Shown here piece after piece: positions 38,344-61,747 of a stretch of DNA of 64,000 nucleotides. The notes below the pieces were generated by a model. It worked only from the letters and a program-made list of their open reading frames with translations, searched no databases and was not told the origin of the DNA. Every line of letters begins with the position of its first letter. The stretch's first letter is position 1. The translations under genes were made by a program, and so were the position numbers. Location: contig JBKAGE010000078.1 in NCBI GenBank assembly GCA_046290225.1, forward strand, positions 320,001 to 384,000. The letters run 5' to 3'. The stretch comes from Bradymonadia bacterium. Its GTDB lineage: Bacteria; Myxococcota_A; Bradymonadia; UBA7976; UBA1532.

Positions 38344-39324
38344 TCAGCGACCGAACTTCTGGGTCCAGTAGTGCGTGTACGGTGAGCCCGGCTCTCGGGC
38401 ATAGCCGATGCCGATCTCGGTGAAGCTGCCGTTCATCATGTTCTGGCAGTGACCGGGAGAGTCGACCCACTGCTGAAACGTCGCCGCGGCAGAGCTGTTG
38501 CCCGCAGCGATGTTCTCGCCGCCGGCCTGGCCACGGTACCCCGCGTCAGCCATGCGCTGCCAGGGCGATCGACCGTCGCGGGAGGTGTGGTCGAAATAGC
38601 CCTGTCGGCCCATGTCCTGAGAGTGCAGTTGTGCAGCGCGCCTCAGCTCGGGCTGCATCGCGACCGGCCCTGCAGGGGGGAACTGTCGACCACCACAGTT
38701 GGCCCCCTCCGCCCTGAAGGCGTTGATCATGGGGATCATGGCGTTCTCTTCAGCGATCCATTCCGCGGGCCACTCACAGTCGCCGCAGTCCAGAGGACAG
38801 GTCTCACACGTCTCGTCGGGATCACACACCGCGTCCCCGCACTCAGATGGGCACGGGCCACAGTCCGCTGAGCAGCTCTCGCATGTCTCTTCTGGCGCGC
38901 TGCAGACTTGATCACCGCAAATCGGCGGACAGCGGCCACAGTCTTGCGGGCAGGTGCCACAGGACTCCGCGTCATCGCACAGATCATCTCCACATGTGGG
39001 CCCGGGCGGTGGTGCGGCGTCTGGCTCTGCGTCGGGTGGCGCGTAGATGAATGCGTCGGGCATGCCCTCGACGGAGCCACCCATGGGTGGAGGCGGCTCG
39101 AATGATCCGCCAGCGCCTCCAGAGGGCCCACCGATGATGCCCATGTCGGCCACCACTCTGGGCGCCTTCTGGTCATCGGGCACCTGCTCCCCTGTGGGCA
39201 AATCCCAAGCGCCCCCAGAGGGCCTGGAGGCCCCTGCGCTGAGCTGCCCCTCGCCACATGCTGTGAGCGCGAGGAGAGCGAGCAAAGAGACCGTGACGCT
39301 GGATGCTCGACAGAGAATTGACAT
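38344..39324 (-). CDS. CAP/SCP domain lipoprotein with Cys-rich repeats
   Basis: Lipobox LTAC; three CGD..C..E.C..C..DC repeats; AQLHSQDM, YFDH, GENIAAG, SPGHCQN, WTQKFG. Confidence 0.9.
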   Translation of the reverse strand: MSILCRASSVTVSLLALLALTACGEGQLSAGASRPSGGAWDLPTGEQVPDDQKAPRVVADMGIIGGPSGGAGGSFEPPPPMGGSVEGMPDAFIYAPPDAEPDAAPPPGPTCGDDLCDDAESCGTCPQDCGRCPPICGDQVCSAPEETCESCSADCGPCPSECGDAVCDPDETCETCPLDCGDCEWPAEWIAEENAMIPMINAFRAEGANCGGRQFPPAGPVAMQPELRRAAQLHSQDMGRQGYFDHTSRDGRSPWQRMADAGYRGQAGGENIAAGNSSAAATFQQWVDSPGHCQNMMNGSFTEIGIGYAREPGSPYTHYWTQKFGR

Positions 39325-39621
39325 GCAGGTCCCACCTCTCTCCAAGGCCGTGTGACATTCTGGTCCAAGGTCACCTGGAGAGGCAAGTCTCTGTTCGCAG
39401 GCGTGTCGCCCCTGACGACCGGCCAACTCAAGACCCCATGTAAAAAAAGCAGACCTCGTACGACACACCCATCGAGGACGTCACATATAGGTCGATGTAA
39501 AAGTCAGGGCCCTGAGAAAGACACAGGGTGGCTGATGTTGCACACTCTTTTGAACACAGGCGGTTCCCTCGCTAGCGTGAGAGAGAGCCCCAAGAGACAC
39601 CAGAAACACCAGAGGCCAGAT

Positions 39622-40164
39622 GTGAGCCGTGGCAAACTCTATACAGGCGGTCGCCTCAACCTGAATCTGCCCATGACTGTGGTGCAGACCATGGAGCGCG
39701 TGCGCATCAAACGCGAGGGCCGCATGGGGCTGCCTTCTGCGGCGGCGGACATCTATCGCGAGGCCCTCGCCCGAGGCCTAGCACAGATGGAGGCCGAGGA
39801 AGACGCTACACGGCCGAACAACACCTCTGAGCCCAAGATGTCCAAGGCCGACGCCGACGCCGCCCGGCGACAGCTCGCGCACCCGATCCTGCTCCAAGAG
39901 ATGTCGACCGACCTCACGCCCTGGGACCAGTGGCGAGCCGCAGCGTGTAGCTGGGCAGAAGACACGTACAAAGATCGAACGATGGGCCGGCACATCGCCC
40001 TGGCCATCATCGACGCCTGGGCCGACGGCGAGAGGGAGATCGGCCCACGACACCTGCCACTCTCACTCTGGGGGGGTCGCGCCGACCGCCTACCCCGAGC
40101 CGAGCGCATTGCCGCTGCCTTGAAACAGGCTCTGCCCCCACCCACACCTCTCTTCGGGTTGTAG
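39622..40164 (+). CDS. Hypothetical protein with putative N-terminal ribbon-helix-helix domain
   Basis: GTG after AGAGG; RLNLNLP alternating strand, helix, then AADIYREALARGL helix as in CopG/MetJ folds. Confidence 0.55.
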   Translation: MSRGKLYTGGRLNLNLPMTVVQTMERVRIKREGRMGLPSAAADIYREALARGLAQMEAEEDATRPNNTSEPKMSKADADAARRQLAHPILLQEMSTDLTPWDQWRAAACSWAEDTYKDRTMGRHIALAIIDAWADGEREIGPRHLPLSLWGGRADRLPRAERIAAALKQALPPPTPLFGL

Positions 40165-40301: not shown

Positions 40302-40321
40302 GTCACGAAATTTTTCGTGAC
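40302..40321. promoter_or_regulatory. Palindromic operator-like site upstream of the protease operon
   Basis: GTCACGAAA-TT-TTTCGTGAC, perfect 9-bp arms, AT-rich, 65 bp before the first ATG. Confidence 0.55.
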
Positions 40322-40386
40322 AAAAAACCCGGCCGGCGGTCTGTGTATGGCCCCTGTGAGACTCAAACTACGGAGGCACAGACCCG

Positions 40387-40887
40387 ATGAACATGCGAAA
40401 CACCCTGCTCCCCCTCGCCCTGCTCGCTCTCTCTGCCTGTGGCGGCGCCCAGAAGCCCACCGTTCAGCCCTCGATTCAAGCGGGGCCCGAAGCGGTGAAG
40501 CCCGGTGGAGACAAGCCGGGTCAGTGGGGCTGCCCTTACTGTGCGGTGCGTGTGTGTGTCGCTGAAGACAAAATCAACGATCCCTCTGCCGAAATCGAAG
40601 ACATCCGAGTAGATCTACCCCTGTCAGAAGATTTTGCAGATCTCAAAATCGCGGAAGCGGACCTGATGATCTCTGATCCCGAGAAGGAGACCGGGTTGTC
40701 CGTAGAGGTCGATCACGAAGCCCTCTACGATGGCCCTGTCAGCTTGCCCGCCGAAGACCTGCCGCAGATGTCGGTGGGGGCGTGGAGCGATTCAGAGACG
40801 ATGGTCATGCTCACCGTGGAAGGTGACTCGGGCCCCGAGCTGGTGCAGGTGCCCGTGGAAGTCAAGGTGGAGACGTGTTCGCAGTGA
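40387..40887 (+). CDS. Small acidic lipoprotein with CPYC motif
   Basis: GGAGG upstream, lipobox LSAC, WGCPYC...C plus C-terminal Cys; coupled to the caspase gene by GTGA. Confidence 0.8.
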   Translation: MNMRNTLLPLALLALSACGGAQKPTVQPSIQAGPEAVKPGGDKPGQWGCPYCAVRVCVAEDKINDPSAEIEDIRVDLPLSEDFADLKIAEADLMISDPEKETGLSVEVDHEALYDGPVSLPAEDLPQMSVGAWSDSETMVMLTVEGDSGPELVQVPVEVKVETCSQ

Positions 40888-42812
40888 AGCGCTCAGGGCC
40901 ACGGTGGTGGTCCTTCGTCCTCGTGGCAGCTCTCGCACATTGGGGTTCACTCTGGGGCTGTGGGGCAACACCCAAGGCGCCTGCAGCGCCTCCCAAGCTC
41001 GCCCTGGTGGTGGGGATCAATCACTACCCGTCACCGCTCATCCCCGAGCTTGAGGGTGCCACACACGACGCGCGCAACTTCAAACAACTGCTCATCGAGC
41101 ACTATGGATTCGACGCCGCCGACGTGAAGGTTCTGACAGATGCTCAGGCCACTCGGGCAGGCATCTTGACGACCTTTCGCAGACATCTCGTGGAGCGAAC
41201 AGTGCCTGGTGCTCAGGTGGTCTTTCATTTCAGCGGACACGGCGCCCAGGTCTTCGACCGTTCGGGCGACGAGCCCGACCGCCTCGACGAAACCCTCGTG
41301 CCCTACGACGCACGGCGAAAGGGCGAGGCGGCCGGCGACATCCTCGATGACGAGATTCAGGGGCTGGTGAAGGCCATCGTCGCCCGTGGGGGGCACCCCA
41401 CCCTCATCTTCGACAGCTGTCACTCGGGGACCGCGGTCCGCTCAGGGCCGAAGGTTCGGGGCCTCGAGCTTCCCAAGGGGGTGAGCCCTGCAGCCCCTCA
41501 CCTGCAACCAGAAGACGAAGGCATGGAGATGCCCCGAGGGTACACCCTCGTCTCTGCGGCGGGCAGCGCTCAAAAGGCCCACGAGATCATCGACGGATCG
41601 GGGCAGGCCCACGGGGCCCTCACCTGGTTCCTCACCCGGGCCATTCGACAAAGCCATGGCCAAATCACGTGGCGCGCAGCAGTGAGTCGCGCCCAAGCTG
41701 ACGTCGCTGTGCACTTTCCCGGCCAACGACCTCGACTCGAAGGCGAAGGCCTCGATCAGCAGCCCTTCTCTACCCCCACGGCATCTCCGGTGGGACCCCC
41801 ACGCTACCTGGCGCGGGCCGTCACGGGATCTCAGAAGCAGCTGACCCTCAACGCCGGCAAGCTTCACGGTGTCGCCCGAGGGGCGCTGTACGGTCTGTAC
41901 CCCCTGGAGGCGATCTGGGCAGAGGAGTTGCCCCCTGAAGACGCTCAACTCGGCCGATTGCTGATCACTGAAGTGAACCCCATGGGGAGCACGGGCCGGC
42001 TGACAGGGGGTGACTGCCTCAAGGCCTGTCAGGCTGTTGAATTGTCGAGGCCTCTGACGCCCCACCCGCTCCCTGTGCGCCTCGATGGCCCCGAGGGTCA
42101 GTGGGATCCTTTGAAGAAGGCCCTCGAGCCCTGGGCGCAGGTGAAGGTCGTCGACGAGCCCCATCTCGCCCGGGCCATGCTCGCCACTTCCGAACAGGGC
42201 TTCACGCTGCAACTGCCTGCAGCAGGTGGGGTCGCTCAAGGGCTCTCTGTGGAGCAGGCCGTGGCGAAGCTGCTCCGATGGGCGCGGTGGTTTCACCTGA
42301 TGAACCTGCCCGACGGCGGTGACATCGGCGCCGAGATCACCCTCGATCCCCCCATCGTGGCCAACGCGGTGCCGCCGGGGACCCGCTTTACGCTCCAAGT
42401 GCAGAACAAAAGCCGCCGCCGGCTCTACCTGTCGGTGCTCTCGCTCTCCGACGAGGGTGAGATTACGCTCGTGTATCCCGCTCCCGGGGCTCAGGAGCAC
42501 ATCGATCCGGGCACCCGCTGGTCCAAGCCCATCCGCACAGTGCTCTCCAGGGACCGTGAGCAGAGCACAGATCTCATCCGAGTGGTCTTCACCCCGACAC
42601 CGCTCGATCTTGCTGCGGTGGAGCAGCCGCCTGAGCTGAGCACGCCGGGCACCCGTGGCCGGCCCTCCCTCGCCGGATGGCTGCTCTGGGGCGCCACCCG
42701 AGGGGGCCCGGTCTCGATGGAGACCCGAGATTGGAGTATTCGCAGCCTCGCGGTGACGGTGCGTCGCGAGGCGCCCCCTCTGCCCCCGAGAGTCGGCCAG
42801 GGCGAGGATTGA
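40884..42812 (+). CDS. Caspase-family (C14) protease with lipoprotein signal and C-terminal DUF4384-like domain
   Basis: Lipobox LWGC; ALVVGINHY, FHFSGHG (His), DETLVPYD, FDSCHSG (Cys), GALTWFL, Q.PRLEG; LYLSVLSL..GEITLVYP. Confidence 0.92.
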   Translation: MKRSGPRWWSFVLVAALAHWGSLWGCGATPKAPAAPPKLALVVGINHYPSPLIPELEGATHDARNFKQLLIEHYGFDAADVKVLTDAQATRAGILTTFRRHLVERTVPGAQVVFHFSGHGAQVFDRSGDEPDRLDETLVPYDARRKGEAAGDILDDEIQGLVKAIVARGGHPTLIFDSCHSGTAVRSGPKVRGLELPKGVSPAAPHLQPEDEGMEMPRGYTLVSAAGSAQKAHEIIDGSGQAHGALTWFLTRAIRQSHGQITWRAAVSRAQADVAVHFPGQRPRLEGEGLDQQPFSTPTASPVGPPRYLARAVTGSQKQLTLNAGKLHGVARGALYGLYPLEAIWAEELPPEDAQLGRLLITEVNPMGSTGRLTGGDCLKACQAVELSRPLTPHPLPVRLDGPEGQWDPLKKALEPWAQVKVVDEPHLARAMLATSEQGFTLQLPAAGGVAQGLSVEQAVAKLLRWARWFHLMNLPDGGDIGAEITLDPPIVANAVPPGTRFTLQVQNKSRRRLYLSVLSLSDEGEITLVYPAPGAQEHIDPGTRWSKPIRTVLSRDREQSTDLIRVVFTPTPLDLAAVEQPPELSTPGTRGRPSLAGWLLWGATRGGPVSMETRDWSIRSLAVTVRREAPPLPPRVGQGED

Positions 42813-42870
42813 CAGCGATATGCCTCTGGGTTGAGATCCCGAGGCGATTGCGTGACACGTGAGTCGGTAG

Positions 42871-43686
42871 ATGACTGAGCCCCACATGGATGACGCGGCC
42901 CTCGACGCCCTGGCCTTCAAGGCCATGGGTGGGGGGGTGCCCGTCGAACCGCCTGATCCTGACGAGGCGCCTTCCCTCGATGAAGGCCTCATCCTCGCCT
43001 GGCAAGCAGGGCAGCTCGACGAGCACACATCGGCCCGTGTCGAGGCTGCCCTCGCCGCTGATCCAGAGGCCCGGGCGGTGGCCCTGGCCCTGGCGGAGCT
43101 GAACGCGTCGCCGGAGCTTGTGGATGATGTGATGCACCGGGCCTTGGAGAGCCAGAAGCCGAAGGCCATCTGGCGGTGGCCCACAGCAATGGCCGCAGCA
43201 GCGGCACTGGCCATTGGAGTGTGGTGGGGTCAACAAGAGCAGCGACTGCCAGGGCCAGACTATGCCTCGGGACCGCTGCTCGGTGCTGCACAAGTCTACC
43301 GCGGACCCGATCAGCCTCAGACCACATCTCCGGTCTATCTGCCGAGCAACACGCTGATGGTGAAGCTGCGACCTGCGACACCGCAAAGCGCGCCGAAGGT
43401 GCACATCTTCGGTGCCTTCGAGGGCGGCCAGCTCGAAGTCCTCTCAGATCATGTCGTCGAGCCCGTCGAGGGTGGCGGCCTCATCATCTCGGCGCCGGCG
43501 AGCGGCCTGTTCGGAGATCGCTTCGGCCCCTGGCGGTTGCATGTGGTCCTCGGCGATGTGCCCGAAGGGCTCGGCCGACGCGGTGAGGCTGAAGTGGATG
43601 CCAGAGCGCGCAGCTCGGGCACCACGTGGATGTCCTTCGATCTCCGCTATGCCCCCACCCTGAAGACAGATGAGGTGGAGCCCTGA
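42871..43686 (+). CDS. Putative transmembrane anti-sigma factor
   Basis: LAWQAGQLD...ARVEAALAADPEAR (zinc-free ASD-like), one TM helix, extracytoplasmic beta domain; adjacent to ECF sigma. Confidence 0.78.
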   Translation: MTEPHMDDAALDALAFKAMGGGVPVEPPDPDEAPSLDEGLILAWQAGQLDEHTSARVEAALAADPEARAVALALAELNASPELVDDVMHRALESQKPKAIWRWPTAMAAAAALAIGVWWGQQEQRLPGPDYASGPLLGAAQVYRGPDQPQTTSPVYLPSNTLMVKLRPATPQSAPKVHIFGAFEGGQLEVLSDHVVEPVEGGGLIISAPASGLFGDRFGPWRLHVVLGDVPEGLGRRGEAEVDARARSSGTTWMSFDLRYAPTLKTDEVEP

Positions 43687-44339
43687 TTCTCTCACTCCTG
43701 CATCTGCTCACCGCCCTCCCCGGCGGCTTTGGTGATCGAGCCGACGAGGTCTTGATCAAGAAAGCCCTTGGAGGCCACAGCGGCGCTCTGCGCATGCTGG
43801 CGCGGCGTATTCTCCCAGTCATCAAGGCCCGGGCGCTGGCCTACACCCGTCGCCGTGGTGGTGATCTGGGAGTACACGACGCCGATGATCTCGTTCAGGA
43901 GATCTGGCTGACCCTGCTCAGCGATGACGGCCGTCTACTCAAGACCTATGACGCCACCCGGGGCAAATCCCTCGAGGGCTATGTCGGCCTGATCTGTCGT
44001 CGTGAGCTGTGGCGTCGTGCCCGGGCCCACGGCGCCATCCGCCGTGGAGGCGAAGCCCAGATCGCCCCCCTCGAAGCAGCCGCCGAGGCCCCGACCTCTG
44101 CCCCCGATCCCGAAGCCATCGTCATGGGGCAGAACCTGCTCGATGGTCTCTCGAGCTATCTGAGCGAGCAGCTGCCCGAGCGCGGCCGCCTCGTGCTCTC
44201 GGCCATCTACGAAGACCACCTCGAGCCGGCGAAGGCTGCGCAGATGATGGGGGTCAAGGTGCAGGTCGTGTACAACTGGCAGCACAAGATCCGCGGACTC
44301 ATCAAAGCCTACTGCGCCGAAGCTGGGGTGGCGGTCTGA
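43683..44339 (+). CDS. ECF-type RNA polymerase sigma factor (probable CTG start at 43683; first canonical start TTG 43752)
   Basis: DEVLIKKALGG, DADDLVQEIWL (region 2), LPERGRLVL...AAQMMGV..QVVYNW (region 4 HTH). Confidence 0.88.
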   Translation: MILSLLHLLTALPGGFGDRADEVLIKKALGGHSGALRMLARRILPVIKARALAYTRRRGGDLGVHDADDLVQEIWLTLLSDDGRLLKTYDATRGKSLEGYVGLICRRELWRRARAHGAIRRGGEAQIAPLEAAAEAPTSAPDPEAIVMGQNLLDGLSSYLSEQLPERGRLVLSAIYEDHLEPAKAAQMMGVKVQVVYNWQHKIRGLIKAYCAEAGVAV

Positions 44340-47056
44340 GGGCCCTACTTCGCTCGCACGCGCTGTGGATCTGCAGTGTGCTGGCCCTCTGCGCATGTCA
44401 GAAGGCACCAGAGCCGGCGCCAGCCCCTGCACCTCTCGAAGCGCTCATCATCAACCCCACAGCGCTGATTCGCGAGGGCACGAACGCCCAATACTGGCTC
44501 ACCCCTGGACGCAGTCTGCTCGTACAACTGAACGCGTCGAGTATCGCGGGCGCCTGGACTCTACACCTGCCTGATCGCAACATAGCCGGCAAGGTGGCTG
44601 GTCCATCAGTCCTCCGGTTTGAGCTGCCAAGCTCTATCCCACAGCCCCCCGAACGCGTTGAGCTGCGCTTGATTGGGCCCGGGCGACGGGAGATGCGCTG
44701 GCTGGTCCGATGGGTCAGTGATCCCCCACCTGCACGTCAAAAAGCTGCCCGCCTGAGCCGGGCAAGTGCCCGAGAGGCACTGAAGGCGCTCGGCTCGATG
44801 ACGCCGGAAGACTCAGTCTGGGCAACGCCGTTCAAGGCGCGGCTCAAGACGAGTCTCGAAGGGCCTCGCGCCGGTGTCGAAGCCTGGCTTGAAGGCGCCA
44901 GACTTGCTGGCACCCATGGTGTCCTCTCAGAACAGATGCGCAATCTGCACATCGCCGCCCACATGGCAGTGGGTGCCCAAATGTTCTCAGAAGCGAGCGA
45001 GGTTTTGGCTCAGGCCAGAGATCTCAACGTCTTTGACATCCAACCCCGCAGTCGATGGGACAATCAACACGCCCAGAGCTACCTCCATGCTCAGTTGGGT
45101 CAATGGATGCTCAGCAGACGTGCCCTCGAAGGCGCTCTGGCCGGTTATCGAGAGGCGGGGCTCTCGAACGAGGCAGCGTCAGCAGGCAACTCTCTCGCGT
45201 TGTTGCTCTCTGATTTGGGCCATCATCGTATCGCGCTGGAGGTGCTCAAGGGTGAAGTCGATCCTGATGCTCTGCCCACTCACCTCCAGCTTCTGCGAAA
45301 CGTCAACCTCGGCTGGATACTGCTCCGCGGCGCAACGGAGCGCATGTGGCCCCTGGACGAGGCAAGGCTCACCTCGCTCTTCACAGGCGCCCTGGCCTAC
45401 GCTCAGGAGGCCCATGGTGACCTGGATGTCGCCAACATCCGCGCCAACCTCGCCCTCACAGCCATCCTCGCAAACAACCTCGCCGAGGCCGAAACCCACC
45501 TCACCGCAGCCGAAGCCGCTGATCCTCGGGGAGAGAGTTTCGCCGCTCTGTTCATCGCTCGCCTCAAGGGTGAACTGGCCCTAGCGAAGGGAGACGCCCA
45601 GCAAGCGCTCGAGATCTTCGCAGTTGCTGAGCTGCTGGCCCGACGCAAGGCCAACGGAGACTGTGAGGACTGTTGGCGAGGCGCCTGGGGCAGCGGCCGC
45701 GCAGCGCTGGCCCTCGGCAACAGACAACACGCCCTGGAGATCTTCCGGCGAGCCATCGATGAGATGGATCGGCTCGCCCAATTTGCCTCGGTTACCGAAG
45801 ATCGAGGGCGCTTCAGAGCTGACCGCCGTGACCTCGTCGATGACACGCTCAGGTTGCTGCTCCACGATGCATGTGGTGCCAAAGGCCCCTGCCTGGACGA
45901 AGCCTTTGCCCTTGCAGATGCGCGGCGGGCAGCCCCCCTCGACGATTTGCTCAGTCGACTCCAGGCCGACCATCTGTCAGCCACCGAAGCACAACACCGA
46001 CGTGCCCGCATCGACGCCGCTCGGCAAGCTCAACGCGAGCTCCGCACATTGGTGGAGCGTGGCGCGGTCGTCCCTGAATCCGAACAGGCTCAGTGGCAGG
46101 CAGCCCACGTCCAGGCCAAAGCCGCCCGGGATGCAGCCTTCGAGGATGCGTTTGCCTTCGCCGGGCCCGCCAGCGGGGATCCCCAACAGCACAGTCCGCA
46201 CTCGATACGTCAGCACCTGGGCGATGACGCGGCCCTGCTCCTGATCACCCCCCTCGATGAAGGCTGGTACAGCTTCTGGCTCGACAACACCGTCCTCCGC
46301 GGTGCGGCGATCACCGACGACCCACTCGCACCCTGGACCGACGCCCTCAAAGACATTCGACACCTGTACGTGGTACCTGGAGGGCACCCCAAAGGCCTTG
46401 CCATCGCCACTGACGCCCTTGGGGATCGACCACCCCTCCTCAAGTCCCACACAGTGGCTGTACTGCCGCATGGCGGCCTGCTCAACGAGAAAGCCGCCAC
46501 GGCATCGGGGCCACCTGTCATCATCGCTGACCCGAGAGGCGACCTCTCTGGAGCAGCCGAGGAGGGCCGCCAGCTCGCCACACGCTGGCCTGATGCGCAG
46601 GTGCTCTCGGGCCCGCGCGCCAGAACAGCCCCAGTCCTCGATCACCTCACGCAGGCACGTAGGGTGCATTTCGCCGGCCACGGCGTCTTGCACAGGGCCG
46701 ACCCGTGGGCCGCCCACCTCGCGCTCTTCGACACCGACACCCTCGACGTGTACGCCATCCTCACCCACCCGGTGCCCAGCGAGCTGGTGTTTCTCAGTGG
46801 CTGTGAGACCGGCGTAGATGATGTGATCCTCGACGAAGAGATCGTGGGCTTGCCCGAGGCGTTTCTCGCTGCTGGGGCACGCTCCGTGGTGGCCACCGCC
46901 CGGCCCGTGGCCGATCGCTCTGCCCGGGCCTTCGCCCGGCACTTCTACGATCACCTCGACGCGGGCCCTGCTGCAGCGCTCAGGGCTGCGGCGTTGGCCC
47001 TCGAGGCCGAGGGTGATCCACACTGGACGGCCTACAGGCTGATGGGGAGGCGCTGA
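44336..47056 (+). CDS. TPR-CHAT domain protease 1 (lipoprotein; probable CTG start)
   Basis: Lipobox LCAC about 20 aa after the CTGA overlap; TPR-like helices; IADPRGDL..A.EE, VHFAGHG (His), LSGCETG (Cys), AFLAAGARSVV. Confidence 0.88.
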   Translation: MRALLRSHALWICSVLALCACQKAPEPAPAPAPLEALIINPTALIREGTNAQYWLTPGRSLLVQLNASSIAGAWTLHLPDRNIAGKVAGPSVLRFELPSSIPQPPERVELRLIGPGRREMRWLVRWVSDPPPARQKAARLSRASAREALKALGSMTPEDSVWATPFKARLKTSLEGPRAGVEAWLEGARLAGTHGVLSEQMRNLHIAAHMAVGAQMFSEASEVLAQARDLNVFDIQPRSRWDNQHAQSYLHAQLGQWMLSRRALEGALAGYREAGLSNEAASAGNSLALLLSDLGHHRIALEVLKGEVDPDALPTHLQLLRNVNLGWILLRGATERMWPLDEARLTSLFTGALAYAQEAHGDLDVANIRANLALTAILANNLAEAETHLTAAEAADPRGESFAALFIARLKGELALAKGDAQQALEIFAVAELLARRKANGDCEDCWRGAWGSGRAALALGNRQHALEIFRRAIDEMDRLAQFASVTEDRGRFRADRRDLVDDTLRLLLHDACGAKGPCLDEAFALADARRAAPLDDLLSRLQADHLSATEAQHRRARIDAARQAQRELRTLVERGAVVPESEQAQWQAAHVQAKAARDAAFEDAFAFAGPASGDPQQHSPHSIRQHLGDDAALLLITPLDEGWYSFWLDNTVLRGAAITDDPLAPWTDALKDIRHLYVVPGGHPKGLAIATDALGDRPPLLKSHTVAVLPHGGLLNEKAATASGPPVIIADPRGDLSGAAEEGRQLATRWPDAQVLSGPRARTAPVLDHLTQARRVHFAGHGVLHRADPWAAHLALFDTDTLDVYAILTHPVPSELVFLSGCETGVDDVILDEEIVGLPEAFLAAGARSVVATARPVADRSARAFARHFYDHLDAGPAAALRAAALALEAEGDPHWTAYRLMGRR

Positions 47057-50000
47057 TGAGCAGACATCTCTTCTCACGGTTACATGCCGGGCTGTTCGCC
47101 CTCGGGCTGTTCGTCTTCGTGCTGGGCATCGGAGTCGGGCACGCCGAAGATGACGAGTTCGTGAGCGACGAGGCCATGGAGGCCCTGGCAAAGTTCCAGC
47201 AAGGGCAGAGCCTCTTCGAGGCGGGTCAGGTGGATCGCGCCCTCACGCTCTTCTCCGAGTCCCTCCCCATCGTGGAGACCATTGTGGCGCCGGATTCGCC
47301 GGGGGACATGGGTGACGCCTACTCCACCGTAGCCCGGTCGGCCTATACCGCGGAGCGCTTCGAGCTCGCAGACCAATGGGGCGTACGGGCCTTCGAGCTA
47401 CATCGCAAGGCGCACAAGGGGCATCACCCGAGCGCGGTTCAGGATCTCGATCTGCTCACCGCCACTGCCATGGCTCGAGGCCGATACTTCGAAGCGAGCG
47501 AGCGTCTCGAACAGGCCCTCGTCGTCATCGAGGCCCTCGACCCTTCTGATCCACGGCGCTCCGCAGGGCCCTCCGCAGTGGCTCAGGCCTTTGCCGAGCA
47601 CGGTGCCCGATCACTCGCTTCGAAGTGGTATGCCCACGCTCTGAAGGCCACTGAGGCGCAATTCGGCGCGGATCATCCCAACACCGGGATCGTCTTGAGC
47701 AACCAGGGCAGGCATCTGCTGGCCATTGGCGATCACCGCGGCGCAGCAAAGGCCCACCTCAGGGCCATGGAGATCATGCGCGCCCAGTATGGCGAGGTGC
47801 ACGCCGACACAGCTCGGACCATGGGCTACGCCGGCTGGTCCCTGCTCCACGCTGGGCAGCTGGCGAAGGGACGAAAACTCCTGGAGCAATCTCTCGCCAT
47901 CGAAGAGCAGGTGCACGGCCCGGAGCATGCCGAGGTCGCCGATACGCTGGTCGATCTCTCCGAGCTGTACCTGCACATTGGTGACATCCAACGGGCGCGC
48001 ACGCTGCTCGATCGCGCCGTGGCGATCAACGCAGCAAAGTTGTCGGAGGATGATCCGGACAGAGCCCGAGCGCACTTTGCCCTCGGTGCACTGCACTACA
48101 CCCAAGAAGACTACGACGCCGCCGAGACGCAGCTCACCCTCGCGTACACGCTGCTCACGGCGAAGGGCGAGGCAGGCAGCCAGCTGACTCACCTGCGCTA
48201 CGCTCTGGGATACCTGAAGGCCGAGCAGGGGCAAATCTCGGAGGGCATCGAGCTGCTGAAGACCGCCCTCGAAGAGAGCCAGGGTGAGGGCGGCAAGGCG
48301 AGTCAGCGGGCGCTCTATTCTGCCTTCCTTGGAGAACTCTACGTCCGCGATGGCGATCTCGACGCCGCTCGACCCTACCTCGACGATGCCCTCGCCTACA
48401 TCGAAGGGGCGGATCTGCCCGTTCATCCCTGGGCCGTCTACATGCGCTATGCCCTGCTGGCCCACGTGGACGATCGCCTGGCCACAGCCATCTTCTTCGC
48501 CAAGAAGGCGGTCGCTGCGTTGGAGAGCAGCCGCCGTGAGGTGGCCAGTATGACTGGCGGTGCCCTCGATCACTTCGACGGGACTCATCGACCCACCTAC
48601 GAGCTGCTCGCCGATCTGCTCATCGAGGCAGGCAGGCTCCTGGAAGCGCAGCAGGTCCTCGACTTGCTCAAGCAGGCAGAGTTCAGAGCATTCACGCGCT
48701 CGGATCCTCGGGGGCCCTCTCTCACATGGAACGCTCGAGAGCAACCGATGGTGGTCCGTCGGGAGTCTGGCGGACCCAAGGGCGGCTATGTGGAGATCAC
48801 GCACCGTCTCGCCAGCGCAGGCCGGGCCTACGAGGCGCTGCTCGCCCGAAAGCGGCAGGCCCTCCGAGAAGGTCGCCCCTGGGCCGAGGCGCAGGAAAAA
48901 GTGCTTCAGACCCTCCGCAGCGATCTCGGGGCAGCCCGAAGCGCCTATCTCGCCCAACTCGCTCAGCTCGAAGAGACGCTGAAGGCCAGAGACGACGGCG
49001 ATCTGCTCGGAAGACACCAGCTCAAGCGGCTCAGTGCGCTCCAGAGCACGCTCCGCCGCATCGGTGAGGGTACCGTGCTGGTCCACGCCCTCATCACCGA
49101 TGACGCATTGCACCTGCTGCTCACCACCCCAGGCGTACAGCTCGTGCGGACTGTACCGATCAAGCGCGCGGACCTGTACCGCGACATCCACACCATGCGA
49201 CAGGCCCTCGCCTCCCCCTCGATGCCGATCCACGACGCCGCCGGGCGCATGTACAAGCATCTCGTCGCCCCGATTCGCGAAGATCTCCGCCAGGCAGGCG
49301 CACGGACGATCTTGTTCGCTCTCGATGGTCCGCTGCGTTACCTGCCCCCTGCGGCGCTGTATGACGCCAAATCGAAACGCTACCTCGTCCAGACCTTTGC
49401 GGTGGCCCACTACACCGAGGCTTCACGCAACACCCTGGAGCGCGATCGCCAGCGCCTGGCCTCCGCCGCAGGCTTGGGGCTGAGCAAGGCTCAGGGTGGG
49501 TTCTCCCCTCTCCCAGCAGTGGGGGAAGAGCTCGATCGGCTGGTCAAGCAGGGGCCGGAGGACGAGGGTGCGATGCCTGGGGTGGTCCATCTCGACGAAG
49601 CGTTCTCCAGAGATGCTCTCGTTGGGGCCCTGGAAGATCGACATCCGGTGGTGCACGTGGCCAGTCACTTCGCCTTTCGCCCAGGCACTGAGGACGATTC
49701 CTATCTCTTGCTCGGTGATGGGCAGCGACTCTCCATCGCCGAGCTGAGATCTGGGGCGTTCCGCTTCGACGAGGTCGAACTGCTCACCCTCTCGGCCTGC
49801 GAGACCGCGCTCTCCACCGGCGCCGACGGTCGAGAGATCGATGGCCTCGCCACCGTGGCACAGGACCGAGGGGCCCAGTCGGTCCTCGCCAGTCTCTGGC
49901 CTGTGGCCGATGTGAGTACTGCCCGACTGATGGGCCACATGTACCAGCGGCTCGTCACCGGCGAGGGCAAGGCCCAGGCCCTCAGGCAAGCGCAGCTGGC

Positions 50001-50169
50001 CCTGCTCAACGGAGAGATTGGTGGCGTCTCCGAGGTGGCAACCACACGGGGCATCGTCAGAGATGGCCCACCGGCGAAGGCTCGCGACGTCTTTGTCCCG
50101 CCCCCTGACGCTCCATGGGCACACCCCTACCACTGGGCCCCGTTCATCCTCATGGGTCACTGGCGATAG
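47056..50169 (+). CDS. TPR-CHAT domain protease 2 (Sec signal peptide)
   Basis: TGATG coupling; signal peptide; kinesin-light-chain-type TPRs (GADHPNT, GEVHADT, GPEHAEV); VHVASH (His), LSACET (Cys), SLWPVAD, HPYHWAPFIL.GHW. Confidence 0.93.
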   Translation: MSRHLFSRLHAGLFALGLFVFVLGIGVGHAEDDEFVSDEAMEALAKFQQGQSLFEAGQVDRALTLFSESLPIVETIVAPDSPGDMGDAYSTVARSAYTAERFELADQWGVRAFELHRKAHKGHHPSAVQDLDLLTATAMARGRYFEASERLEQALVVIEALDPSDPRRSAGPSAVAQAFAEHGARSLASKWYAHALKATEAQFGADHPNTGIVLSNQGRHLLAIGDHRGAAKAHLRAMEIMRAQYGEVHADTARTMGYAGWSLLHAGQLAKGRKLLEQSLAIEEQVHGPEHAEVADTLVDLSELYLHIGDIQRARTLLDRAVAINAAKLSEDDPDRARAHFALGALHYTQEDYDAAETQLTLAYTLLTAKGEAGSQLTHLRYALGYLKAEQGQISEGIELLKTALEESQGEGGKASQRALYSAFLGELYVRDGDLDAARPYLDDALAYIEGADLPVHPWAVYMRYALLAHVDDRLATAIFFAKKAVAALESSRREVASMTGGALDHFDGTHRPTYELLADLLIEAGRLLEAQQVLDLLKQAEFRAFTRSDPRGPSLTWNAREQPMVVRRESGGPKGGYVEITHRLASAGRAYEALLARKRQALREGRPWAEAQEKVLQTLRSDLGAARSAYLAQLAQLEETLKARDDGDLLGRHQLKRLSALQSTLRRIGEGTVLVHALITDDALHLLLTTPGVQLVRTVPIKRADLYRDIHTMRQALASPSMPIHDAAGRMYKHLVAPIREDLRQAGARTILFALDGPLRYLPPAALYDAKSKRYLVQTFAVAHYTEASRNTLERDRQRLASAAGLGLSKAQGGFSPLPAVGEELDRLVKQGPEDEGAMPGVVHLDEAFSRDALVGALEDRHPVVHVASHFAFRPGTEDDSYLLLGDGQRLSIAELRSGAFRFDEVELLTLSACETALSTGADGREIDGLATVAQDRGAQSVLASLWPVADVSTARLMGHMYQRLVTGEGKAQALRQAQLALLNGEIGGVSEVATTRGIVRDGPPAKARDVFVPPPDAPWAHPYHWAPFILMGHWR

Positions 50170-55669: not shown

Positions 55670-61639
<5,970 letters not shown>

Positions 61640-61747
61640 CGTGGTGACTCCCTCTGCTCGAGCCTGCAACTGGCCCGTCGGAGGGAAAGTCGGTGGATCT
61701 ACCTAGGCTGATGATGGCTCATTCTGGGTCGACCCACTGGTGGGTGC

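Follow-up and report, generated by a model that had tools for sequence, protein, structure and literature searches.

DdvA/DdvS of Myxococcus xanthus (PMC11506125; PMC6061681; PDB 8ROT) pairs a sigma factor of the extracytoplasmic function (ECF) type with a single-pass class I anti-sigma factor and a periplasmic TPR-CHAT domain with a His-Cys dyad, for which a CHAT site-1 cut followed by RseP has been proposed (PMC11506125); DdvA/DdvS governs a CBASS/CRISPR island. The ECF54 group, according to its supplementary entry (PMC7826278 supplement; PMC8999054), places a sigma gene beside a subtilase and a TPR-CHAT gene, and proteolytic control has been proposed there as well. Two CRISPR-linked systems are comparable in outline: in type III-E Craspase Csx29/Csx30/CASP-sigma (PMC10028731), a TPR-CHAT protease cuts a sigma inhibitor and alters transcription, and in the type III-B SAVED-CHAT/PCaspase/PCi/PCc-sigma system of Haliangium (bioRxiv 2023.06.23.546230), a sigma factor and a small partner of the caspase accompany proteases of the CHAT type and the caspase fold. 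Myxobacterial operons of metacaspases with sigma-70 factors, the N-terminal helices of which are possible signal peptides, are noted in the relevant part of PMC3501461. The present analysis concerns a window of 64,000 nucleotides from a Bradymonadia bacterium (assembly GCA_046290225.1, contig JBKAGE010000078.1, positions 320,001 to 384,000), in which six co-directional open reading frames (ORFs) at 40302..50169 encode a lipoprotein, a caspase-fold protease (caspase), an anti-sigma factor, an ECF sigma factor and two TPR-CHAT proteins (CHAT1 and CHAT2). By homology, this locus appears to be a split relative of DdvA/DdvS in which the catalytic part of an exported subtilase has been replaced by an exported metacaspase, the tail domain of the subtilase having become a separate lipoprotein in this lineage.

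In the DdvA sources, the TPR-CHAT module is fused to the anti-sigma factor, whereas CHAT1 of the window is a separate lipoprotein; the anti-sigma factor here has a small Ig-like ectodomain and lacks the zinc ligands (CHCC), a second protease and a tail domain are present, the genome yielded neither a Cas1 nor a RAMP gene, and the promoter query given for DdvS, GTAA-n16-CGT, differs from the AAAAGA-N16/17-GTA found here. Common to both are a class I anti-sigma domain with one transmembrane helix and a CHAT domain with intact dyad, predicted by motif to be extracytoplasmic; membership of DdvA itself was rejected because CHAT is not fused to the anti-sigma factor and the zinc motif is missing. 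ECF54, as documented in its supplementary entry, is 100% actinobacterial, with no putative anti-sigma factor, a carboxypeptidase-regulatory-like gene at +1 and the promoter GTATCAG/CTCC in place of AAAAGA-N16/17-GTA. CHAT is present in the window and a subtilase is missing, the latter being found at 27/52 related loci, and membership of ECF54 was likewise rejected, since an anti-sigma factor is present, the promoter differs and most informative designations of related loci name Myxococcota, Bradymonadia or Deltaproteobacteria. The Haliangium system differs in being cA3-triggered and CRISPR-linked, in that PCaspase cuts the sigma factor itself, and in that PCi is predicted to be CI-2-like rather than FnIII-like; the available text of that preprint mentions no signal peptide or transmembrane anti-sigma factor. 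Craspase (PMC10028731) is cytoplasmic, RNA-activated and bound to Cas7-11, with a soluble inhibitor, and the consulted part of PMC3501461 makes no mention of an anti-sigma factor, CHAT, subtilase or tail domain.

With regard to a linked Cas effector or cyclic oligoadenylate (cOA) sensor, the genome-wide search of the 99%-complete genome found no Cas1 or RAMP gene, with positive controls matched, and neither CHAT protein carries a SAVED domain in Pfam. The CRISPR-free character claimed in a preliminary description of the DNA is supported. Its claim of novelty does not: gating of an ECF sigma factor by an exported TPR-CHAT protein has already been solved for DdvA/DdvS (PMC11506125), the CHAT, subtilase and sigma contexts correspond to ECF54 (PMC7826278 supplement), and myxobacterial metacaspase-sigma operons were recorded in 2012 (the passage on them in PMC3501461). 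A literature search of mainly open-access papers found no description of a split cassette or of a caspase-for-subtilase swap; the swap is the new element, and the general cassette lies close to the literature.

Relatives of the sigma factor were found in 13 of 24 genomes of the same family and in none of 16 more distant genomes (E 1e-15); from 61 matches other than its own, 40 were fetched with about 20 kb each and annotated with local profiles. A pattern scan with one genome per species yielded 52 loci, many overlapping with the 40-locus set, from organisms designated Myxococcota, Bradymonadia, Archangium, Sandaracinaceae, Polyangiales, Deltaproteobacteria or just bacterium. Anti-sigma genes occur at 46 of these loci, CHAT1 at 34, the caspase at four, the lipoprotein at three, and sigma, anti-sigma, CHAT1 and subtilase together at 27, the co-occurrence counts being lower bounds owing to the 9-kb flanks. 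The usual fourth gene encodes an exported subtilase (Pfam S8); all four catalytic motifs match simple patterns in 26/41 subtilases and the Ser motif does so in 40/41. The core across the Myxococcota is an ECF sigma factor, a single-pass anti-sigma factor and a lipoprotein TPR-CHAT1, usually with an exported subtilase. The genome of the window (8.58 Mb, 99% complete; 11 CHAT and 6 C14 matches) holds three further full subtilase cassettes (C76, C38, C35) and two partial ones; the window locus has no subtilase.

The order lipoprotein-caspase-anti-sigma-sigma-CHAT1 recurs in two genomes (G014 and G022), and in two others (G015 and G023) the sigma pair lies on one contig and a lipoprotein-caspase-CHAT1 trio on another; the five-gene form is found in five related genomes, spread over two loci in two of them. 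In G022, the contig ends within CHAT1, so that the presence of CHAT2 cannot be judged there. The preliminary description had taken all six genes for a unit; the five-gene order without CHAT2 does recur, but the six-gene order was not met elsewhere, CHAT2 standing beside a sigma pair only here and the caspase substituting for the subtilase. CHAT2 (47056..50169, + strand; Sec-exported, dyad H871/C915, Pfam CHAT E 1e-60) belongs to a different CHAT subfamily, the homologues of which were found at six loci in 3/27 family genomes, none of the six with sigma/anti-sigma genes in the fetched flanks; G014 has the five-gene order without CHAT2 and carries its homologue on another contig. CHAT2 was considered as a core part and rejected on this count (0/6 loci with a sigma pair); it is a local add-on, accessory and probably co-transcribed.

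Several variant loci were seen in passing. A 614-aa ORF with an anti-sigma domain (L007:9279-11123, G000:C37) follows a subtilase and CHAT1, with no sigma gene in the fetched 14 kb; at L004 (G000:C68) the sigma/anti-sigma pair lies between two opposite-strand CHAT1-type genes, with a contig end close by; and Ser/Thr kinase, STAND-CHAT or WD40-caspase genes adjoin the cassettes at L053, L055, L060, L069 and others. A second operon class in the genome of the window (L009, L012, L013, L014) consists of a sigma factor, an anti-sigma factor with a juxtamembrane K-G/K-A and an exported caspase, joined in L009 by an outer-membrane barrel; a phmmer comparison of the other caspase-sigma operons of this genome with the window caspase gave no match at E 1e-3.

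In the lipoprotein of the window (40387..40887, + strand; lipobox Cys18), K43-P44-x4-C49-x2-C52 is followed by a beta-sandwich modelled as FnIII-like. Pfam gave no family for it, nor for the anti-sigma factor, and the fold search returned only common beta-sandwich matches (best Z 7.6). The lipoprotein matches the last ~120 residues of the cassette subtilase, both segments beginning with P-x4-C-x2-C, and hhalign of nine lipoproteins against 25 subtilase tails gave 95% (E 3.6e-8, 101 columns; reversed control 0.5%). It is thus a free-standing homologue of the subtilase C-terminal domain, a homology that rests on profiles because the alignment with one single subtilase is weak (6%, E 0.006). The gene lies directly upstream of the caspase in 9/9 loci and overlaps the caspase start in eight; eight of the nine caspases have export signals as judged by eye, and CHAT1 adjoins at 7/9 loci, the sigma pair at 4/9. 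Over 113 genomes of the class, the lipoprotein profile gave strong matches only at the nine loci from which it had been built; a further seven matches that were weak and partial (E 4.5e-5 to 8.4e-4) were left out of the count.

The residue preceding the invariant Pro is Q in 36/39 subtilase tails (2/41 lack the motif) and R/K in 9/9 lipoproteins. A library set of 150 proteins was divided into 114 long or subtilase-like sequences, 20 stand-alone lipoproteins and 16 short fragments that were set aside; the first group has Q 91, L 6, S 4, A 3, E 2, H 1, M 1, R 1 and none 5 at this position, the single R row being a 167-residue protein misfiled by the sorting rule, and the stand-alone lipoproteins have R 13, K 6 and A 1. 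Since the acidic S1 residues typical of metacaspases are retained in the caspase, the change from Gln to Arg/Lys suits the new enzyme, and the survival of the tail domain after the swap suggests that this overlooked domain takes part in the working of the switch. A shared cut on the N-terminal side of the leading Gly in the subtilase motif G-P-Q-P was also considered and was rejected, R/K occurring there in 1/9 lipoproteins. Two short exported tail-domain proteins, P0076 and P0154, lack the R/K-P of the other lipoproteins; P0076 is nearest to the subtilase form (E 4.8e-14), and both are possibly independent fissions.

The caspase (40884..42812, + strand; GTG start, lipobox Cys26) is a Peptidase_C14 member in Pfam (E 7e-20), and its nearest solved relative is yeast metacaspase-1 (E 1.9e-20). 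It has the His-Cys dyad and the acidic S1 residues D62/D177 of a metacaspase, D62, H119, D177 and C179 being invariant in 15/15 caspases; the same 15/15 conservation holds for R/K186 and R192, which follow closely on the catalytic Cys. In metacaspase structures, such acidic Asp residues confer Arg/Lys specificity. Specificity for Arg/Lys is described for the family in the relevant part of PMC3501461, and the window enzyme is presumably an Arg/Lys-type metacaspase. The six caspase-type CHAT1s fall within one 11-row branch (SH-aLRT 97) nested among subtilase loci, a nesting that suggests that the caspase form is the derived state; the CHAT1 tree is a quick one of uneven composition, unrooted except for midpoint rooting. 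A branch sets the closest sigma factors apart from the rest, and another does so for the closest caspases (support 94 and 90, respectively); both groups come from the same five genomes.

The anti-sigma factor (42871..43686, + strand; 271 aa) had been recognized as such in the preliminary description, and this identity is borne out: a 35-row profile matches RslA (3hug_B, E 7.7e-5) and ChrR, several relatives keep the full HxxxCxxC, the window protein itself having no zinc motif, and the predicted model (pLDDT 83.6) comprises a helical anti-sigma domain (~38-94), a transmembrane helix (~103-122) and a periplasmic Ig-like domain (127-265), the fold search again yielding only common beta-sandwich matches (best Z 7.5). 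An exposed loop of this Ig-like domain carries R144-G145 (43300-43305, + strand), is coil in the model and has a mean pLDDT of 68 versus >90 on either side. In an alignment of 45 rows, which includes a single row of another operon class, the R144 column reads R 38, K 3, L 2, M 1, Q 1 (R/K 41/45) and the following residue G 22, S 15, A 4, T 2, D 2 (G/S/A 41/45), the R/K site being kept alike in subtilase and caspase loci. It can be rationalized that this loop is the site-1 cut.

The sigma factor (43683..44339, + strand; Pfam Sigma70_r2/r4) has orthologues of 58-64% identity. Its N-terminal extension (43683-43750) is hydrophobic, with a 13-residue hydropathy of 1.4-3.4 in 31/34 rows, and may tether the protein to the membrane or be a cleaved pro-sequence. 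CHAT1 (44336..47056, + strand; lipobox Cys21, dyad H782/C823; Pfam CHAT E 9e-33) keeps its dyad in 32/32 relatives and its profile matches the DdvA CHAT domain (8rot_B, E 8.4e-13); it is the core protease of the cassette. Comparison by hhalign among the anti-sigma Ig domain, the caspase C-terminal and middle domains, the CHAT1 N-terminal domain and the tail domain gave no more than 1.3%, and a protein-atlas comparison returned only matches under 0.9.

Upstream of the lipoprotein gene, AAAAAA-N17-GTA (40322..40347, + strand) is a predicted promoter of the sigma family, the family consensus being AAAAGA-N16/17-GTA. The pattern AAA(A/G)(A/G/C)-N17/18-GTA is present in 19/95 cassette upstream regions (shuffle mean 0.88, maximum 4), and the variants AAAA(A/G)G-N17-GCA stand at the same position in L045, L046 and L047, and not in L048. 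In the genome of the window, AAAAGA-N16-GTA has 21 matches and the N17 form 13, other spacings giving 2-10. Among the genes 3' of the motif, 18/23 pass a signal-peptide heuristic versus 106/398 without GTA, one of the 23 being counted twice and two being paralogous anti-sigma genes. Of 17 exported-looking candidate targets, 13 have no Pfam family, the others being a subtilase, an RCC1-repeat protein, a DUF1501 protein and a PQQ-like propeller; no defence family in Pfam was found among the 17. An inverted repeat (40302..40321), the 9-bp arms of which match perfectly around a 2-nt centre, abuts the -35 element and is a candidate operator; the looser pattern GTCACG-N8-CGTGAC occurs twice in the genome, and inspection by eye revealed no such repeat upstream of the eight remaining lipoprotein genes. 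A scan for sigma-70 promoters found none, and no terminator-like site follows CHAT2 up to 50600. The same promoter-like string also lies in a repeated element at seven places (G000 contigs C9, C16, C37, C38, C70, C75), probably an insertion sequence or miniature element.

The preferred reading, for which the chances are about even, is that of a periplasm-to-cytoplasm regulated-proteolysis switch in which the core would be served by an input unit made up of a second exported protease and the X-P-x4-CxxC/FnIII-like domain; in the common form both input parts are fused in the subtilase. Tentatively, the metacaspase would engage Lys43 of the lipoprotein and, on a cue, cut or release the domain, and this lipoprotein event might, a shade more doubtfully, activate CHAT1. 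Whether CHAT1 would then make the site-1 cut of the anti-sigma factor at Arg144|Gly145 is an evenly balanced proposal; an RseP-type M50 protease, of which the genome has two full-length matches, would quite likely cut the remaining membrane stub and free the sigma factor (cf. truncated DdvA), and the latter would, with good probability, drive its own operon together with genes of exported proteins. This core logic of CHAT1 cut, RseP and sigma release is borrowed by analogy from DdvA, and least certain of all is whether the tail domain serves as ligand, substrate or inhibitor. A bolder version, on balance improbable, would be a modular three-tier extracytoplasmic protease relay of myxobacteria with the outline of Spaetzle/Toll, in which an interchangeable first protease, subtilase or metacaspase, would process the P-x4-CxxC/FnIII-like domain as a ligand, the ligand would turn on the separase-like TPR-CHAT, and the latter would cut the anti-sigma factor; it may be, with comparable reserve, that the locus would then record an enzyme exchange across folds, the ligand being kept and its P1 residue going from Gln to Arg/Lys.

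Several points weigh against the switch as outlined. Twelve of the 46 anti-sigma loci have no CHAT1 within 9 kb, and two of the nine lipoprotein-caspase loci (L102, L103) have none nearby. The CHAT1 tree requires 2-3 label changes, and the anti-sigma and lipoprotein trees two changes for the five-genome group. When the motif is left out, the hhalign similarity of lipoprotein and subtilase tail falls to 35% (E 4e-4; three controls ≤0.3%). The nine loci with the lipoprotein are spread over only five genomes, which are related, and are kin rather than independent, so that the Gln-to-Arg/Lys change may be one single event. Furthermore, most proteases do not cut before Pro, which is the residue after K43 or its Gln counterpart, and the K43-Pro site may be an inhibitory pseudo-substrate instead of a substrate. 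The cleavage and binding steps are predictions from sequence, and even in the model system, according to PMC11506125, it is truncated DdvA that is an RseP substrate, autoproteolysis by CHAT being proposed only.

An arrangement after the Haliangium example, in which a TPR-CHAT protein senses the cue and activates the metacaspase by cutting it, the metacaspase cuts the anti-sigma factor and the lipoprotein is a PCi-like inhibitor, is unlikely. It draws on the cascade in which, according to bioRxiv 2023.06.23.546230, SAVED-CHAT activates PCaspase and PCi inhibits PCaspase; the acidic S1 residues of the caspase would suit Arg144, R/K186 and R192 past the catalytic Cys are kept in 15/15 caspases, and four other operons in the genome of the window pair an exported caspase with an anti-sigma factor bearing a juxtamembrane K-G/K-A, with no CHAT in the fetched flanks. 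However, the Arg site of the anti-sigma factor is kept in subtilase loci that have no caspase, the linker arginines also occur in caspases of loci that lack CHAT1, as would be expected for self-processing, and CHAT2 is not conserved with the unit. The trans-envelope, CRISPR-free module of proteases, anti-sigma and ECF sigma factor put forward in the preliminary description is supported. Its order, CHAT to caspase to anti-sigma, is not directly supported; the candidate cut site is kept in caspase-free loci.

Similarly improbable is the view of the proteases as outputs, with the Ig domain of the anti-sigma factor sensing together with housekeeping proteases, the sigma factor inducing exported proteases for attack or defence, and the R/K-P of the lipoprotein plugging the caspase as a protective inhibitor. 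The family promoter at the operon and a predicted regulon of mostly exported proteins, another subtilase included, would agree with it, as would the 12/46 sigma pairs without CHAT1 nearby and the Pro after the basic residue, which fits an uncleavable plug. Yet an inhibitor of a subtilase is not expected to persist once the enzyme has been replaced by one of unrelated fold, the sigma pair is accompanied by CHAT1 in several lineages of Myxococcota, no other role is evident for the conserved R|G/S loop, and ECF operons often carry the genes of their own regulators. A single obligatory cascade of three proteases, CHAT2 among them, is very improbable: the TGATG coupling of CHAT1 and CHAT2, the intact dyad and signal peptide of CHAT2 and a caspase near a CHAT2 homologue (L107) are set against the same five-gene order in G014, where the CHAT2 homologue is on another contig, and the 0/6 CHAT2 loci with a sigma pair.

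The anatomy of the operon agrees with the preliminary description. The six co-directional ORFs were found as claimed, and four of the five junctions overlap (GTGA 40884-40887, CTGA 43683-43686, CTGA 44336-44339, TGATG 47054-47058), a 58-nt gap separating only caspase and anti-sigma. All three proteases have the His-Cys dyads ascribed to them (caspase H119/C179, CHAT1 H782/C823, CHAT2 H871/C915), and the claimed export signals, lipoboxes for caspase and CHAT1 and a Sec peptide for CHAT2, were supported by lipobox, hydropathy and conservation, export itself being predicted by motif. Of the Pfam families that it named, Peptidase_C14, CHAT (twice) and Sigma70_r2/r4 were matched, but DUF4384 appeared only weakly, at E 0.016, under the cut-off, in the C-terminal domain of the caspase. 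The two probable CTG starts, of sigma and CHAT1, are absent from the calls of the ORF tool but find support in orthologues: the stop codon of the anti-sigma gene runs into the sigma frame as CTGA at the window locus and its closest relatives, five loci in all, and as ATGA in three others; the N-terminal segment gained by the sigma CTG start aligns from residue 1 in G015; and the sigma-to-CHAT1 junction is TTGA in L046 and CTGA in L047.

Upstream of the operon, a 209-aa ORF (39535-40164, + strand) has no Pfam family; its first part is presumably ribbon-helix-helix-like, as judged by eye, and nothing similar was noticed in the upstream regions of L046 and L047. Further upstream, a gene transcribed away from the operon (38344-39468, - strand) encodes a CAP-domain protein that begins like a lipoprotein and has Cys-rich repeats, and downstream lies a gene (55670-61669, - strand) for a protein of 1999 aa in which 21 stretches of thrombospondin type 3 repeats were recognized.

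The DdvA structure has raised the question of what triggers periplasmic TPR-CHAT switches. A natural exchange of the partner protease, in which one small domain is retained and one residue changes to match the new enzyme, would name a candidate activator or inhibitor. As the protease, its presumed substrate and the partner are separate proteins here, the role of CHAT in the site-1 cut would become accessible in vitro. If the reading is true, a bacterial exported metacaspase would gain a defined partner.

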